Below, piece after piece: positions 141 through 49,716 of a DNA stretch of 53,665 nt. The DNA lies in contig JAUWPM010000002.1 of assembly GCA_030611585.1 (NCBI GenBank), positions 1 through 53,665 on the forward strand, read 5' to 3'. Every line of letters starts with the position of its first letter. Within the stretch, counting starts at the first letter, position 1. Source of the stretch: Methanosarcinales archaeon (GTDB lineage Archaea; Halobacteriota; Syntropharchaeia; Alkanophagales; Methanospirareceae). The position numbers and the translations under genes are program-made. The notes under the pieces were generated by a model. It was not told where the DNA came from. It was given only the letters and a program-made list of their open reading frames with translations, and searched no databases.

Positions 141-164
141 AAAAAAAGAAAACCTGTGCTAAAA
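141..164 (-). repeat. partial copy (hairpin core) of the 128-bp MITE-like repeat family
   Basis: AAAAAGAAAACCTGTGCTAAAA is the reverse complement of TTTTAGCACAGGTTTTCTTTTT, which occurs in the full copies at 9911-10038 and 49201-49328. Confidence 0.5.
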
Positions 165-201
165 CTTTTTCGCAAGCAAAAACCTTTGCTAAAAAATATA
201 C

Positions 202-9873: not shown

Positions 9874-9910
9874 TTTTTTCATTGTATATAAAGTATAACT
9901 GCCTTCTCTT

Positions 9911-10038
9911 TAAGACACGGATTAACACACAACTTTTTTACCTTCGGTAAAAACCTTGACTAAAATATTCCTGATGTTTTTCTTTTAGCACAGGTTTTCT
10001 TTTTGTAAAAAAGAAAAAGTGTTGTGTCAACGATTTAG
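9911..10038 (+). repeat. 128-bp MITE-like intergenic repeat, copy 1
   Basis: 121 of 128 positions are identical to 49201-49328 (hand aligned, no gaps). Imperfect terminal inverted repeats (ACACACAAC...GTTGTGT) and an internal hairpin TTTTCTTTTTGTAAAAAAGAAAA. Confidence 0.85.
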
Positions 10039-10053
10039 TTTGTTCCGAGTTAT

Positions 10054-41632: not shown

Positions 41633-43279
41633 ATGGGTGCAGACGAAATGAAAGTAGCGTACATAGATTTAAGCAAAGAAAAAGCAGAAGTGAGGGATAG
41701 AAGCGATCTATCGAGCTATTTCGGAGGTGCAGGAGTGGCTTTTAAGCTGCTGAACGAATACAAAGATGTATTGCGAACGAACGCACTACGGGTTGAGCAG
41801 CCTATAATATTCGCAAAAGGGTTCTTTACCGGTATTTACCCTTGTGCAACGAAAGTTACAGCGGCTTTCAAGTCGCCTCTTACCGGGGAACTGGGCGAGA
41901 GTCATGCAGGAGGGAATCTCTCTTACGCAATGGCGAGTGCAGGATTAGATGCAATCGTTATCGAAGGAGCATCAGAAACGCCGGTTCATATACGAATAGA
42001 TGAATCAGGCATAGAGATAAAAGAAGCGGAGAAGCTTTGGGGATTGTCGTGCTTTGAAGTTGAAAACCGATTGGATGGAAGAAGTAAAATGTATATCGGC
42101 AAAGCAGGAGAAATACAGATTCCTTTCGCTTGTGTTACCGTTGATAGATATAGACACTTCGGCAGATTGGGCTTGGGAACGTTATTCGGGTCAAAAAGAT
42201 TAAAAGCGCTAACAATATCGGGTAAAAAGCGAATCAGAGTAAAGAGCAGCTATTATCGAGAAATACTTAAGCGGATAAAAGAGGATAACGACCTTAAGAA
42301 ATACAGTGAGGGCTATGGCACTTCAGAGAACACCGTAATGATGAATGAAGTAGGTGGTTTACCTGCGGAAAACCTTCAAGCGAACAGGTTTAATGTGGAA
42401 GGATTAACAGAAGATGCATTCGCGAAGTTTCTGGTAGAGAAAAAGACATGCTCGGGTTGCCCAATAAGATGTATAAACGTAGCGAAGCGGGACGCAGATT
42501 CGCCGAGGATAGCTTACGACTATGAACTGATATACTCCTTAGGACCGCTGTTAGGGATAGGAGAAGCGAAAGAAGTTTTTAGACTGTTAGAGAAAGTAGA
42601 GAAATACGGTTTGGATGCAATAGCCACGGGGAACTTGTTAGCATGGGCAACGGAAGCGTATGAGAAAGGTTTAATTAAACTTTTAGTACCTTTAAAGTTT
42701 GGAGCAACGGAGAACTACTTGGAAACGATAGATAAGCTTGTAGAAGGAGAGGGGATTTACAAGGATTTGAGGAAGGGGACAGAGGAGGCTGCTTCGATAT
42801 ACGGAGGAAAAGATTTTGCTCTAACACTGGGGAAGAATGCAATGGCAGGGTATCATACAGGATATGCACTGATATTGGGGCAGGCGGCAGGACAGCGGCA
42901 TTCACACATGGATAATAACGCATGGTTTCTGGATTTTGAGAAATATCCGTCGGAAGAAGTGGTGGATGAGCTCATTTCAGACGAGAAGAAGAGATGTTTG
43001 ATGAATTCTATGGGGCTTTGCTTGTTCGCAATAAGCGTCTACGATCTCAAGACAATTTCTGAAGGACTTAACGCGATAGGGATAGATAAAAGCGAGGAAG
43101 AGCTTTTTGAAGTAGGAGCAGAGATATTCGAGATAAAGAAGGAGATAAAGCGAGTATGTGGGTTTGAATACGAGAAGTTAAGGTTTCCAGAGAGGTTGTT
43201 TGAGACAGAGAGCATGAACGGGTTTTTGAACAGAGAAACGTTGGATAAGATGCTGAAGAGGTATGTGGAGAGGATGTAG
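41633..43279 (+). CDS. aldehyde:ferredoxin oxidoreductase (AOR) family tungsto/molybdopterin enzyme
   Basis: AOR N-terminal domain (YIDLS.., GG.G....L) and a C-terminal domain with the CSGCPIRC cluster-ligand region. 548 aa. Confidence 0.8.
   Translation: MGADEMKVAYIDLSKEKAEVRDRSDLSSYFGGAGVAFKLLNEYKDVLRTNALRVEQPIIFAKGFFTGIYPCATKVTAAFKSPLTGELGESHAGGNLSYAMASAGLDAIVIEGASETPVHIRIDESGIEIKEAEKLWGLSCFEVENRLDGRSKMYIGKAGEIQIPFACVTVDRYRHFGRLGLGTLFGSKRLKALTISGKKRIRVKSSYYREILKRIKEDNDLKKYSEGYGTSENTVMMNEVGGLPAENLQANRFNVEGLTEDAFAKFLVEKKTCSGCPIRCINVAKRDADSPRIAYDYELIYSLGPLLGIGEAKEVFRLLEKVEKYGLDAIATGNLLAWATEAYEKGLIKLLVPLKFGATENYLETIDKLVEGEGIYKDLRKGTEEAASIYGGKDFALTLGKNAMAGYHTGYALILGQAAGQRHSHMDNNAWFLDFEKYPSEEVVDELISDEKKRCLMNSMGLCLFAISVYDLKTISEGLNAIGIDKSEEELFEVGAEIFEIKKEIKRVCGFEYEKLRFPERLFETESMNGFLNRETLDKMLKRYVERM
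43139..43278 (+). repeat. 140-bp direct repeat, copy 1 (functional 3' end of the AOR gene)
   Basis: Read as identical base for base to 43912-44051. Identity stops at the third base of the stop codon (TAG here, TAA in copy 2). Confidence 0.9.
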
Positions 43280-43325
43280 AGGGTGTGAAAAAAGATATTC
43301 TCGTTTTATCAACCTCACAGGATAT

Positions 43326-43445
43326 TCAGTATGTTTCGATTTTCAAATCCCGTATGCGGGAGAAGTGCTCAACATTTTTAGTGAGAACGACCTCACTATT
43401 ATGCAAAGCAATCCCTGCGATCATAGCATCTTCCGGATCTATCAT
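43326..43445 (-). pseudogene. PIN-domain (VapC) C-terminal fragment
   Basis: MIDPEDAMIAGIALHNSEVVLTKNVEHFSRIRDLKIETY* matches only the last ~40 aa of PIN toxins. The N-terminal ~90 aa are absent. Confidence 0.55.
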
Positions 43446-43710
43446 CTTTCCCTCTTTGATTAATTCTCAATGTTCTATCTCTGCTCTTTTCCCGCATTTC
43501 CTCGATAACATCCCACAGCTCCTCAGCATCTCCTTCTTTCAAAAATCCAACTATTCCCATCAATGATTTCTTTTTTGTTAACCGAGAGATAATACCGTTG
43601 AAAGTTTCTCCTTCTCTTCTCTCTGCATCCAATCTTGCATATACCTCTTCCGATATAGATATGCTCATACTGCTCATTTTTTCCACCACATATAAGTTAT
43701 AATCTTTCAA
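43399..43710 (-). CDS. VapB-like ribbon-helix-helix antitoxin (COG1753-like), 3' end fused into the decayed toxin region
   Basis: MSISISEEVYARLDAERREGETFNGIISRL..GDAEELWDVIEEMREK is typical of archaeal CopG-type antitoxins. The C-terminal ~25 aa read into the PIN remnant in another frame. Confidence 0.6.
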   Translation of the reverse strand: MKDYNLYVVEKMSSMSISISEEVYARLDAERREGETFNGIISRLTKKKSLMGIVGFLKEGDAEELWDVIEEMREKSRDRTLRINQRGKDDRSGRCYDRRDCFA

Positions 43711-43767
43711 TTTAAAGATATAATGCGAAAGTCTGGCGATTTTTACAAAAGCTGATGTTCAATTCAT

Positions 43768-43911
43768 CTATGCTTTCCTTTGTTCCCGCACAATCTCGGG
43801 TAGCGGCTCTCCTTCAGATAGTATCTTCCTAACACGCCCCAAATCGTTACTTCTTATCTTCCTGACTTTAATGCCCAGTTTTTTTGCTATTTCTTCGACC
43901 CCTCTGCTTTT
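43768..43911 (-). pseudogene. N-terminally truncated helix-turn-helix gene fragment
   Basis: ..KSRGVEEIAKKLGIKVRKIRSNDLGRVRKILSEGEPLPEIVREQRKA*. The recognisable coding sequence begins exactly at the edge of repeat copy 2. Confidence 0.4.
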
Positions 43912-44051
43912 AAGGAGATAAAGCGAGTATGTGGGTTTGAATACGAGAAGTTAAGGTTTCCAGAGAGGTTGTTTGAGACAGAGAGCATGAACGGGTTTTT
44001 GAACAGAGAAACGTTGGATAAGATGCTGAAGAGGTATGTGGAGAGGATGTA
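43912..44051 (+). repeat. 140-bp direct repeat, copy 2 (orphan duplicate of the AOR 3' end)
   Basis: Identical to 43139-43278. Encodes ..KEIKRVCGFEYEKLRFPERLFETESMNGFLNRETLDKMLKRYVERM* with no upstream gene body. Confidence 0.9.
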
Positions 44052-44053
44052 AA

Positions 44054-44104
44054 CACACTTTTTCTTTTTTGGGCAAAAAAGAAAACCTGTGCTAAAAGAA
44101 AAAA
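44054..44104 (-). repeat. half copy of the 128-bp MITE-like repeat
   Basis: CACACTTTTTCTTTTTTGGGCAAAAAAGAAAACCTGTGCTAAAAGAAAAA closely matches the reverse complement of 9975-10030. It supplies the last codons and the stop of the gene at 44092-44778. Confidence 0.7.
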
Positions 44105-44778
44105 GTTTGATGCATAGGAATAATATAATCAGCGATTTCTTTTAGCCGTGCCAAGCTGTCATAGGCTTCGAGTAAATTGGTGTGATAAGCAGGAGGGATG
44201 ATTTGTGGCTCGAAGTTCTCCTTAATACAGCATAGACCCTCTATTACCTCTTTACCTCGCGCTGTATTGATCAGTACAGATTGACTCCCGGGGCTGTGTC
44301 CGGGTGTTTTCAAAAGCTTCAGACCCGGGAATATCTCTTTATCTCCTTCAATCACTTCTATATCCTGTCTTTCTATTGCCTTCAGATTATACCAGGTGCG
44401 CACTGCAGGATGTGGGCTTTGTGCGAATTCTAACTCATCTTTTTGCAGAAAGAACCTCGCATTCGTATATTTGTAAGCTAAATCCACATGCCCGGTGTGA
44501 AGATGCGTTTGTATAACGATATCTATGTCCTGCGGAGCTAAGCCAAGCTTCCCCAGCCCTTCCTCTATACTTTGAACTTTATTTGCAGGATAACCCAACT
44601 TAGATAGTAGCTTTGGATCGCCTCCCGAATCCACCAATATATTTTCCCTTGCTCCTTCGATGTACCACACGTAGCCAGTAGTAGTTATTACATCATCGAA
44701 ATTGCGATGCATATAGAGGTGTTCTGCCTTTTTTACCTTCCCACTGAAAAGTGGCACGTAATGTATTTTGTATTTCAT
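44092..44778 (-). CDS. MBL-fold metallo-hydrolase (lactonase-like)
   Basis: THLHTGHVD (a variant of HxHxDH) and a downstream TPGHSPGS motif. 228 aa. Confidence 0.75.
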   Translation of the reverse strand: MKYKIHYVPLFSGKVKKAEHLYMHRNFDDVITTTGYVWYIEGARENILVDSGGDPKLLSKLGYPANKVQSIEEGLGKLGLAPQDIDIVIQTHLHTGHVDLAYKYTNARFFLQKDELEFAQSPHPAVRTWYNLKAIERQDIEVIEGDKEIFPGLKLLKTPGHSPGSQSVLINTARGKEVIEGLCCIKENFEPQIIPPAYHTNLLEAYDSLARLKEIADYIIPMHQTFFF

Positions 44779-49074: not shown

Positions 49075-49200
49075 TTTCTTGTTTTCCTAAATATTTTTCG
49101 TGCTAAAAAATTTGTTTACCGACACTATTTCTATTCTAACACCGTCTGTATCAATACTCCTTTCATCATCTGTGTTAATCTGTGTCAACAAAATATAATT

Positions 49201-49328
49201 TTAAGACACGGAGTTACACACAACTTTTTTACCTTCAGTAAAAACATTGGCTAAAATATTCCTGATGTTTTTCTTTTAGCACAGGTTTTCTTTTTGTAAA
49301 AAAGAAAACGTGTTGTGTCAACAATTTA
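49201..49328 (+). repeat. 128-bp MITE-like intergenic repeat, copy 2
   Basis: 121/128 identity to 9911-10038. It is preceded at 49172-49187 by an inverted copy of its own 5' terminus (TGTGTTAATCTGTGTC). Confidence 0.85.
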
Positions 49329-49716
49329 GGTTTTCTTGTTTATAATTCCATATACCTTGCTCATATCAATATTGCTTCGCACGAGGTCTGCTAATTTGTT
49401 GTATTCCCTATCCCAATCAATAGCACTCCTCCTGTCGCTTTTGTTTTCGTCTATACTCAACAGAGGCAGCCCTTTTTTCCGTCTTATGCAGTTCAGAAAA
49501 GCGTGTCGAAAGCCACCGTTGTCGAATATCCCGTGTATATAAGTCCCGATGACGTTGCCATCAGAAGAAACAGCGCCACCCTCATCGTCCGGAACCTTCT
49601 CCCCGGAACGGTGCGACTTTATAGCCATCCTGGGTGAATATGCGGCAAAGCGCTGCTACGATTACACTTTTGCCCACTCCTGAGCCCGTGCCTTGGACCA
49701 TTATTTTTTTCGCCAT
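49326..49716 (-). pseudogene. cobQ: cobyric acid synthase (cobQ/cbiP) internal-deletion remnant
   Basis: The N-terminal ~37 codons ([37 protein letters not shown]) are joined out of frame to the last ~85 codons (..DGNVIGTYIHGIFDNGGFRHAFLN..). The ~370 central codons are missing. Confidence 0.75.

Follow-up and report, generated by a model that had tools for sequence, protein, structure and literature searches.

A toxin-antitoxin islet between two copies of an AOR gene end in an ANME-1 archaeon: a strain-level insertion that probably needed no integrase

The window studied here, the whole 53,665-nucleotide stretch of DNA from a Methanosarcinales archaeon, holds a small islet of toxin-antitoxin genes enclosed by two identical copies of the 3' end of an aldehyde:ferredoxin oxidoreductase (AOR) gene. 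The islet is a real insertion that varies between strains of one methane-oxidising ANME-1 species, and is an ordinary strain-level variant. Its most likely origin is a small piece of DNA with a copy of the AOR 3' end, which entered by homologous plus illegitimate recombination. More specifically, we think it somewhat probable that a small, integrase-less toxin-antitoxin islet was put at the end of AOR by a Campbell-type single reciprocal crossover. In insertions of this type a circular DNA is taken up by homologous recombination, and the homologous segment is left duplicated around the insert.

Results

The duplicated gene end

The geometry of the locus is defined by the following features.

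41633..43279, + strand: AOR gene, 548 aa, intact, stop TAG (Pfam AFOR_N 7.6e-57, AFOR_C 3.9e-59)
43139..43278, + strand: repeat copy 1, the last 46 codons of AOR and the first two bases of its stop codon
43912..44051, + strand: repeat copy 2, an orphan AOR 3' end with an A (TAA) and the ancestral sequence after it
44052..44105, no strand assigned: A/T-rich hairpin where AOR and MBL converge, overlapping the stop codon of MBL
44092..44778, - strand: metallo-beta-lactamase-fold (lactonase-like) gene, MBL, intact (Pfam Lactamase_B 5.9e-11)

An initial annotation of the window had claimed that the last 140 nt of AOR, to the second base of the stop codon, are repeated exactly 773 nt downstream. A repeat search confirmed this: the direct repeats at 43139-43278 and 43912-44051 lie 773 nt apart and are 100% identical, and a window-wide scan found just one other long repeat. 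Copy 1 ends at the second base of the AOR TAG stop, and copy 2 is followed by an A, giving TAA. The AOR frame is kept, with orthologues in ANME-1/Methanophagales genomes at 79-85% amino acid identity, and the orphan 3' end is present at the far junction, much as in the attL/attR-like picture that the annotation had drawn.

Assembly error does not account for the 140-nt repeat. In principle a de Bruijn-graph path that was collapsed or misjoined could pass twice through the AOR 3' end, and in favour of this the repeat length is near common maximum k-mer sizes, the contigs L068, L069 and L070 break within the repeat, and the related locus L004 does have an artefactual repeat. The latter, a perfect 121-nt repeat in the L004 MBL gene, was considered as a parallel case and rejected because it merely flanks a scaffold gap of 100 Ns. 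Against an artefact, a 7.6-kb ENA SPAdes contig (L001) crosses both copies with five substitutions only in its copy 2, and a unitig of run X2 that begins within copy 1, crosses the insert and enters copy 2 has the copy-2 SNPs as well. In run X1 the 140-nt unitig has a depth of 110, twice that of the flanks (50-57), with the insert at 68. Both junction sequences were found again in five studies or samples. The window junctions recur in L068, L069 and L070 and are common to four other assemblies, half of which have a 5-nt difference specific to copy 2. Given the spanning contig, the copy-2 SNPs and the recurrent junctions, we reject the artefact explanation as exceedingly improbable.

The empty site and the downstream genes

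The initial annotation had proposed looking for an empty site in related genomes, and one is present within the species. A same-species scaffold of 116 kb (L093) is precisely empty, with one copy followed by TAA, the hairpin and MBL. Its nucleotide identity to the window is 98.3% upstream and 96.9% downstream, and both window copies align to its one copy. The site is also empty in L094 of the same species, in Logan contigs of runs X7 and X8 and in the other ANME-1 species L002, L003 and L006; the X7 contig skips the same 773 nt (depth 25). In run X5 the flanks have a depth of ~50 and the insert 12-17. The sequence 3' of copy 2 matches L093 and the orthologous loci L003, L004 and L010, and MBL directly adjoins AOR in L002, L003, L006 and L093. 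The comparison points to MBL as the ancestral convergent neighbour of AOR and supports reading the 773 nt as inserted into an AOR-hairpin-MBL order of ancestral type.

The hairpin folds at -11.5 kcal/mol with a z-score of -0.19. Its core is present in four copies in the window, where none is expected, as well as in other ANME-1 loci, and the hairpin belongs to a family of recurring intergenic elements. It is this recurrence, not the islet, that accounts for the very high depth at 44055-44104. Rfam and terminator scans of the region returned nothing.

Content of the islet

Between the two copies lie the following features.

43279..43325, no strand assigned: third base of the TAG stop and a 46-nt spacer, unlike the spacer after copy 2
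43326..43462, - strand: remaining 3' part of vapC (PIN toxin), only its last ~46 codons (NCBIfam VapC 1.1e-7)
43399..43677, - strand: vapB antitoxin ORF, 92 aa (PF02697 7.7e-14)
43462..43463, no strand assigned: deletion scar, where 277 nt of L070 are absent, with a joint microhomology of 2-3 nt
43678..43741, - strand: vapB upstream region, ~32 nt from the mobile vapBC cassette, the remainder filler
43742..43767, - strand: PIN toxin gene remnant, the first ~9 codons, reading MN*TSAFVKI; the partner gene normally found after the HTH gene
43768..43911, - strand: HTH antitoxin-like gene 3' fragment, 47 codons and the stop of a 69-70-aa gene

A VapB-like gene running into a PIN C-terminal stub and an HTH fragment at the repeat edge had been recognised in the initial annotation, and our profile matches (PF02697, NCBIfam VapC) and the frame from 43911 agree with it. 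Residues 1-72 of the vapB ORF are VapB, and the final 20 are out-of-frame vapC stub. The PIN stub read from the VapB-like ORF has 39 aa and matches NCBIfam VapC residues 91-128 of 130. The fullest islet found is that of a sister contig, L070, where the vapBC cassette is intact. It measures 910 nt, has the identical two junctions and contains only vapB (350-589), vapC (586-978, a 4-nt overlap) and the same truncated HTH gene; both Pfam families match (PIN 2e-11). The vapC stub has 95.6% nucleotide identity to the intact 130-aa PIN gene of L070, and the window VapB is 99% identical to an intact 79-aa VapB (P0001). In the alignment with L070, the 277-nt deletion removes 7 codons from the end of vapB and roughly 86 from the start of vapC. 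With its toxin truncated and its antitoxin tail altered, the VapBC system of the window is predicted to be dead. The cargo had been thought almost entirely deleted, a view that the comparison does not bear out, as the window lacks only 277 nt relative to the 910 nt of L070.

The cassette itself has homology to other ANME-1 loci at 82-87% nucleotide identity over L070 positions 318-990, corresponding to the window from ~43709 down to ~43314, and this homology stops at ~43314-43321. In an alignment of AOR 3' ends, the first ~15 nt of the spacer at 43279..43325 are faintly like the AOR-downstream spacer of the L007 lineage.

The HTH fragment is without the first 22 codons and the promoter of the gene. 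The break is exactly at the edge of copy 2, where the 47-codon frame starts at 43911. Full-length homologues are found in P0053 (91% amino acid identity), lineage Z (83%) and L085-L088 (69-73%). An exhaustive search found only six relatives, and the 49-aa fragment gave no match in a word-index homology search. Family profiles gave only sub-threshold or weak matches (Sigma70_r4-type and HTH), there was no significant PDB or PHROG match, and an AlphaFold2 model of the family had a pLDDT of 52. The protein appears to belong to an uncharacterised antitoxin-like family of 69-70 aa. A PIN gene lies 3-4 nt 3' of the HTH gene in L085, L087, L088 and lineage J (L089-L091), and L086 has the HTH gene without a PIN partner. 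This is a two-gene module, with a small HTH gene immediately upstream of a PIN gene. The nucleotide homology between the window and J goes 26 nt beyond the HTH stop codon; the PIN partner protein starts MRIYLDTSALVKRY in L085 and, translated from the J sequence, MRIYLDTSAFVKRY in lineage J. Two other readings of the fragment were rejected: a C-terminal HTH of a resolvase or transposase, as the 69-aa family is complete and paired with PIN genes, and an SSV-type element gene spanning the att site, as the HTH frame is open for just 13 codons into the repeat.

Variants in the two copies

The empty allele reads 43182A/43189G/43198A/43253T/TAA. In L070, copy 1 reads 43198A/43253C/TAG and copy 2 reads 43182G/43189G/43198G/43253T, so each copy is host-like on its chromosome side and different on its islet side. 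L001 and L068 carry their 5-nt patch on the islet side of copy 2 as well, and it is identical to the AOR sequence of the L007 lineage. The same pattern, a duplicated homologous segment with host-like outer and donor-like inner sides, is seen in L070 against L093, in the L001 patch and in TAG against TAA, and these variants fit a single reciprocal (Campbell-type) crossover. They fit equally well an excision, the reverse reaction, and also a site-specific crossover within 43199-43252, so the pattern does not identify the enzyme. All window-type (W) contigs have one single junction pair, consistent with one event.

The initial annotation had offered a recent event, gene conversion or an assembly artefact as reasons for the perfect identity of the copies. 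The artefact fails on L001 and the recurrent junctions. Gene conversion after the insertion seems the best explanation, because L001, L068 and run X2, otherwise identical to the window, keep the 5-nt foreign patch in copy 2.

The other end of the insert is of a different kind. The joint that closes it breaks the 69-codon HTH gene at codon 22/23 and sets it against AOR position -140. Such a joint is illegitimate and unlike the border of a functional att site; no clear microhomology is present where HTH and AOR meet. In runs X1, X2 and X4 the insert is 1.2-1.5 times as deep as the flanks, but extra circles as the cause were rejected, as the repeat unitig depth does not agree with them, and the ratios were taken as noise. 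One X4 Logan contig reads HTH-repeat-TAG-vapC at ~5x coverage, an order that a k=31 graph with missing branches gives as well. No molecule, whether circle or donor, with precisely this make-up turned up, circles having been sought in Logan contigs, and in the W species neither did an occupied allele, or an islet beside AOR, without the duplication.

Related islets in lineages Z and J

Relatives of the islet lie next to AOR sequence in two other lineages. The decayed locus of lineage Z has the order AOR 3' end, native spacer, vapC, vapB, HTH, and this vapC-vapB-HTH module is a candidate donor-type arrangement. In lineage J, 35 nt separate an intact HTH gene from an AOR 3' remnant that is longer (from ~-225), and MBL follows. 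The module is 87-94% identical between W and Z, where flanking genes are 83-86% identical; over the HTH fragment W and J share 96.5% identity, against 82-86% in the flanks. Among W, Z and J the junctions differ on both sides, which leaves no att core in common. Z at first seemed to break at 43911 as the window does, but both Z and J continue into the intact 5' part of the HTH gene.

Discussion

Alternative explanations

The initial annotation saw the footprint of an element that had integrated into the gene end. The insertion and the recombination geometry are supported; a larger, integrase-bearing element is not, with L070 at 910 nt and no integrase. Such an origin would make the islet the remnant of a site-specific element (a provirus, plasmid or island) whose attP held the AOR 3' end, with an integrase either its own and since deleted or acting in trans, and with most of its cargo lost. 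The insert does lie between direct repeats, of which one completes the target gene, and relatives have an empty attB, precise in a same-species genome. The exact gene-end duplication leaves AOR intact, in both copies the non-host variants are found on the element side, one core in 43199-43252 could accommodate every informative crossover, and the present 140-nt limit and the loss of the HTH 5' part could both stem from a deletion that reached attR. However, the islets of the window, L070, Z and J contain neither genes nor gene fragments for an integrase, an excisionase, replication or structural proteins. The window repeats enclose nothing beyond VapB, the PIN stub and the HTH fragment, with no tyrosine or serine recombinase gene or remnant, and L070 adds just the rest of vapC. 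The full-length element with an integrase that the annotation had proposed looking for in relatives did not turn up, the versions in L070, Z and J all being integrase-less. The fullest version has its junctions unchanged, and the sole other islet remnant (43742-43767) is another toxin gene. Protein and DNA pattern scans of IMG/VR viral contigs found no AOR 3' end, HTH gene or relative of this VapB, and the islets of W, Z and J do not share an att core or junctions. The islet as the stump of a larger integrase-carrying element is not supported by these comparisons, and a site-specific origin seems unlikely to us. A transposon or IS insertion with target-site duplication was rejected: there is no transposase ORF, the insert ends have no inverted repeats, and 140 nt far exceeds the length of known target-site duplications.

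The islets beside AOR 3' remnants in Z and J raise a different possibility, namely that the arrangement could be far older than it appears. An islet between AOR and a partial AOR 3' duplicate would then predate the split of W, Z and J, with gene conversion keeping the copies alike and the empty sites being secondary precise deletions. The Z module sits beside its AOR 3' remnant on the toxin side, the J HTH gene is close to a remnant that reaches beyond the W repeat and is followed by MBL, and the divergence of the module between W and Z is near that of the flanking genes. Conversion between copies is directly indicated, and precise loss is easy between direct repeats. That said, most lineages and a genome of 98% identity are empty, which would require many independent losses. 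The HTH identity of W and J, so far above that of the flanks, favours recent transfer over co-divergence, no junction is common to the three lineages, and two full AOR genes are found in no genome. We regard an old arrangement as improbable, roughly on a par with the site-specific element. It is quite doubtful that the ~1-kb unit of AOR 3' segment and toxin-antitoxin genes is a mobile cassette that looks autonomous but is enzyme-less, which loops out as a small circle when its flanking repeats recombine and re-enters the AOR of other strains or chromosome copies; re-entry would use host recombination or an integrase supplied in trans.

A probable Campbell-type origin

For the Campbell-type insertion that we favour, the incoming piece would have had ~1,050 nt in four parts: at least 140 nt of AOR end, the TAG stop with the other spacer, the vapBC cassette and the 5'-truncated HTH gene, its ends joined by an illegitimate break inside the HTH gene. 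The source was probably a related ANME-1 chromosome with the islet already downstream of AOR. Earlier still, to judge from the 26-nt remnant, the vapBC cassette may have overwritten the HTH gene's own PIN toxin partner. Entry could have been by a circle crossing with the resident AOR 3' end via host homologous recombination, or by one homologous and one illegitimate exchange between occupied and empty alleles, which would give the same product. In that product AOR is intact with a new stop, the islet is next, and the original AOR 3' end, the hairpin and MBL have moved 773 nt downstream. Later, gene conversion seems to have removed the 5-nt foreign patch from copy 2, leaving the perfect 140-nt identity, and a 277-nt deletion cost vapC its catalytic part and vapB its C-terminus. 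A reverse crossover between the repeats would recreate a perfect empty site, so presence and absence among strains may reflect both gain and loss.

The movement of toxin-antitoxin cassettes without recombinases of their own is poorly understood. This locus is a natural example resolved to the base, with an occupied site, a precise empty site, a pre-conversion intermediate and a toxin-intact version. It suggests that a gene-end duplication of the attL/attR type can form and be homogenised with no visible integrase. Consequently, when elements are called in metagenome-assembled genomes from gene-end duplications, the repeat signature alone is no proof of an integrase-driven element. Were the unit a mobile cassette of the kind described above, toxin-antitoxin cassettes would have a tangible way to 'home' to one specific protein-gene end and to spread through ANME-1 populations.

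Comparison with known systems

There is precedent for elements that insert at the 3' end of a protein-coding gene and bring a replacement copy of it: phage 21 and e14 reportedly do so at E. coli icd. The present locus resembles these prophages, and islands at gene 3' ends, in the direct duplication of the gene 3' end that flanks the insert, in a gene left intact with an altered end (here TAG for TAA, and a foreign 5-nt patch in some strains) and in a precise empty site in relatives. It differs in that the islet has no integrase or other element gene, the whole insert being ~1 kb of toxin-antitoxin debris, that one junction lies inside a gene, and that no att core is conserved across lineages.

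As a type II VapBC system (PF02697 antitoxin, PF01850 PIN toxin), the L070 version is typical, its overlapping vapB and vapC matching both families; the window version differs, its toxin lacking the N-terminal ~86 residues and its antitoxin having an altered C-terminal tail.

In the same organism group and cold-seep habitat, ANME-1 strain diversity is reported to be concentrated in variable hotspots rich in toxin-antitoxin-type genes, and toxin-antitoxin operons are among the strain-level insertions and deletions, inserted or partly deleted between strains (Zhou et al. 2026, PMC13385816). A text search of that paper gave no hit for VapC, for aldehyde (AOR) or for direct repeats; what our locus contributes is junctions at base level and a mechanism that is likely.

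The locus is also like Campbell-type insertion and homology-facilitated illegitimate recombination. The homologous segment is duplicated, the SNPs of the two copies are reciprocally chimeric, and one homologous and one illegitimate junction would suffice with no dedicated recombinase. The difference is that here we see a natural polymorphism in an uncultured archaeon, whose donor and route of transfer we infer.

Repeat and gene content of the locus

A scan of the whole window recovered an exact direct repeat of 140 nt (43139-43278 and 43912-44051, spacing 773 nt) along with just one further long repeat. The AOR ORF closes with copy 1, which covers its 3′ end up to base 2 of the TAG stop. The A that follows copy 2 gives TAA, and this is followed by a hairpin rich in A/T and by a convergent gene, whose stop codon comes first. 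The initial annotation had described the repeat and the gene fragments between its copies, and the repeat scan, ORFs and domain matches show this description to be accurate. We call the stretch between the copies the islet.

Features of the locus
41633-43279: AOR, 548-aa ORF (Pfam AFOR_N 7.6e-57, AFOR_C 3.9e-59)
Between the copies, minus strand: VapB-family antitoxin ORF (PF02697, 7.7e-14)
Between the copies, minus strand: PIN C-terminal stub of 39 aa, entered by the VapB ORF (NCBIfam VapC, 1.1e-7)
Starting exactly at the copy 2 edge, minus strand: HTH-like frame of 47 codons
Downstream of copy 2, convergent with AOR: metallo-beta-lactamase-fold gene (MBL)

The contig with the fullest islet found, L070, has both repeat junctions and an insert of 910 nt, in which an intact vapB (79 aa) overlaps an intact 130-aa PIN gene (PF01850, 2e-11). 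Relative to L070 the window has lost 277 nt between 43462 and 43463, which takes the last 7 vapB codons and about 86 vapC codons. The vapBC cassette begins about 32 nt upstream of vapB, ends about 10 nt beyond vapC, and recurs in unrelated ANME-1 contexts with 82-87% nucleotide identity (L076-L084 against L070 318-990). These recurring cassettes adjoin NosD/beta-helix surface-protein genes and UPF0175 genes; their homology does not reach further than ~30 nt ahead of vapB or ~10 nt past vapC. The cassette looks like a minimal mobile unit without a visible recombinase.

The HTH fragment encodes only the last 47 residues of a protein that is 69-70 aa long and has full-length homologues in two other ANME-1 lineages, J (P0053, 91% amino-acid identity) and Z, and in four JGI contigs. 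The family is rare (6 matches among 1.84 billion representative proteins), searches of Pfam, PHROG and PDB gave no assignment, and the quality of an AlphaFold2 model was too low for use. In L085 (551-1234), L087, L088 (374-1083) and lineage J (L089-L091) a ~156-aa PIN-domain gene of the VapC family follows within 3-4 nt; the L085 partner matches Pfam PIN (7.4e-8) and its relatives carry VapC-family toxin names. Because a PIN gene directly follows it, the HTH protein would act as an antitoxin-like partner to a second PIN toxin. Together the two genes probably make up a type II toxin-antitoxin pair in which the antitoxin family is new, a module apparently undescribed so far. Window positions 43742-43767 retain the first codons of this PIN partner (TSAFVK), and therefore the vapBC cassette would have overwritten that gene. 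The islet is a layered record of toxin-antitoxin genes.

An insertion/deletion polymorphism in a natural population

The suspicion that the repeat is an assembly artefact can be set aside as extremely improbable. An independent 7.6-kb SPAdes contig from another sample (L001) covers the entire structure and differs from the window at five positions only, all substitutions in a 9-nt span close to the 5′ end of copy 2. The same five variants occur in a unitig of metagenome run X2 that links the interior of copy 1 to copy 2 across the insert. Three more contigs (L068, L069 and L070) share the window's junctions, and the 140-nt unitig of run X1 reaches a depth of 110, in the range of twice that of its flanks (50-57). 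A seemingly parallel case in a public MAG (L004, 10083-10424), a perfect 121-nt direct repeat in the MBL gene, brackets exactly 100 Ns; it reflects an overlap at a scaffold gap that was left unmerged and has no biological meaning.

AOR orthologues at 79-85% amino-acid identity all lie in ANME-1/Methanophagales genomes, and the source runs are cold-seep and marine-sediment metagenomes. In L002, L003 and L006 the convergent MBL gene lies about 40-70 nt beyond AOR, and the sequence after window copy 2, ACACACTTTTTCTT, is kept in L003, L004 and L010. An empty site had been predicted in relatives, and it exists in L093, a 116-kb same-species scaffold with full synteny (98.3% identity over 6.6 kb upstream, 96.9% over 5 kb downstream). 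Here the 140 nt occur once; both window copies align to this single copy, and TAA, the hairpin and MBL come after it. We take this alignment to be the decisive result. Logan contigs of run X7 make the same 773-nt skip at depth 25, those of run X8 show that a more distant lineage also has the site empty, and in run X5 flank depth is ~50 against 12-17 for the insert. It follows that a natural population is polymorphic for an insertion/deletion of these 773 nt.

Crossover signature and probable gene conversion

The empty allele (L093, L094) has 43182A, 43189G, 43198A, 43253T and TAA. In L070, copy 1 has 43198A, 43253C and TAG, and copy 2 has 43182G, 43189G, 43198G and 43253T, so that each copy is host-like toward the chromosome and different toward the islet. 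This is the pattern expected if one reciprocal, Campbell-type crossover had occurred between 43198 and 43253. The aligned alleles show this geometry; which enzyme acted, what the donor molecule was and whether the event was a gain or a loss are inferences.

The 5-nt patch in copy 2 of L001 and L068 lies on the islet side and is identical to the AOR of the L007 lineage. Gene conversion of copy 2 by copy 1 is the best explanation for the perfect identity of the window's copies, since the host version of the patch is found in copy 1 of every strain and in the empty allele, and in only some copies 2 (window, L069 and run X1).

Related islets in other lineages

Lineages Z and J carry HTH-containing islets at the AOR-MBL locus, and all their junctions differ from the window's.

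Gene order in the related islets
Lineage Z (L071-L075): CdhB-like gene; AOR 3′ remnant of ~175 nt with its own spacer; vapC; vapB; full HTH gene, fused to MBL codons 1-149
Lineage J (L089-L091): flanking sequence; shortened PIN gene; intact HTH gene; 35 nt; AOR 3′ remnant (from about -225, with an internal deletion); spacer; intact MBL

In lineage Z only the last ~175 nt of AOR are left, immediately after the CdhB-like gene, DUF362 has an internal deletion, and the fusion is in frame, giving a 220-aa chimeric MBL-HTH ORF (e.g. L073 1126-1788) whose joint sits in a ~13-nt microhomology (TTATCTCTTTATC). The entire neighbourhood is decaying. The motif GGAGATAAAG lies at the left edge of the AOR repeat (43123-43153) and, inverted, in MBL codons ~146-150 (44334-44364), where it coincides with the lineage-Z deletion joint; the pair forms a 31-nt inverted repeat, 74% complementary. 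Its placement could be coincidence or a preferred site of illegitimate joints.

Between the window's lineage and Z the module is 87-94% identical and the flanks 83-86%; against J the figures are 96.5% for the HTH fragment and 82-86% for the flanks. These identities indicate exchange between lineages, whatever the age of the arrangement.

Other repeats and fragments in the window

143-165 (minus), 9982-10004 (plus), 44076-44098 (minus), 49273-49295 (plus): copies of an intergenic hairpin element
49326-49628 (minus): 100-aa ORF, matching only the last ~30 positions of a CobB/CobQ-type glutamine amidotransferase domain (9.3e-6)

The hairpin core, CTTTTAGCACAGGTTTTCTTTTT-loop-AAAAAAGAAAAAGTGT, has four copies in 53 kb where chance predicts none. 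Two copies lie inside a 133-nt repeat with 94% identity (9909-10041 and 49200-49332), and the element is found elsewhere in ANME-1 (L002, L003 twice, L051 and L093). At 44055-44104 the Logan contig depth climbs to 10^3-10^4 in each of the eight metagenomes, and the flanks are many and varied. The element may be a terminator, or REP- or MITE-like. The 100-aa ORF, in a low-GC stretch (0.31) beside one 133-nt repeat copy, is probably a gene fragment.

Mechanism and comparison with known systems

We favour the insertion of a small piece, consisting of an AOR 3′ copy and toxin-antitoxin genes, by homologous plus illegitimate recombination, because a gene is broken at the right junction and a recombinase is lacking. 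The incoming piece could have been a circularised fragment; alternatively, an occupied and an empty allele could have recombined unequally to give the same arrangement. The initial annotation had read the duplication as the footprint of an integrated element. The insertion with gene-end duplication and the empty site stand, but the islet holds neither an integrase nor a transposase nor any other element gene, not even as a fragment, and there is no conserved core. It is thus unlikely that an integrase-borne element decayed here or that the element was mobilised in trans. That the arrangement is ancient and was precisely lost again and again is equally unlikely.

Toxin-antitoxin operons have already been reported in strain-level structural variants of ANME-1 (PMC13385816), and the locus is an ordinary but well-documented variant of this level. 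Its geometry is like that of elements that integrate into the 3′ end of a protein gene, although it differs from these in having neither integrase nor conserved core. It matches what is expected of a single-crossover homologous insertion.
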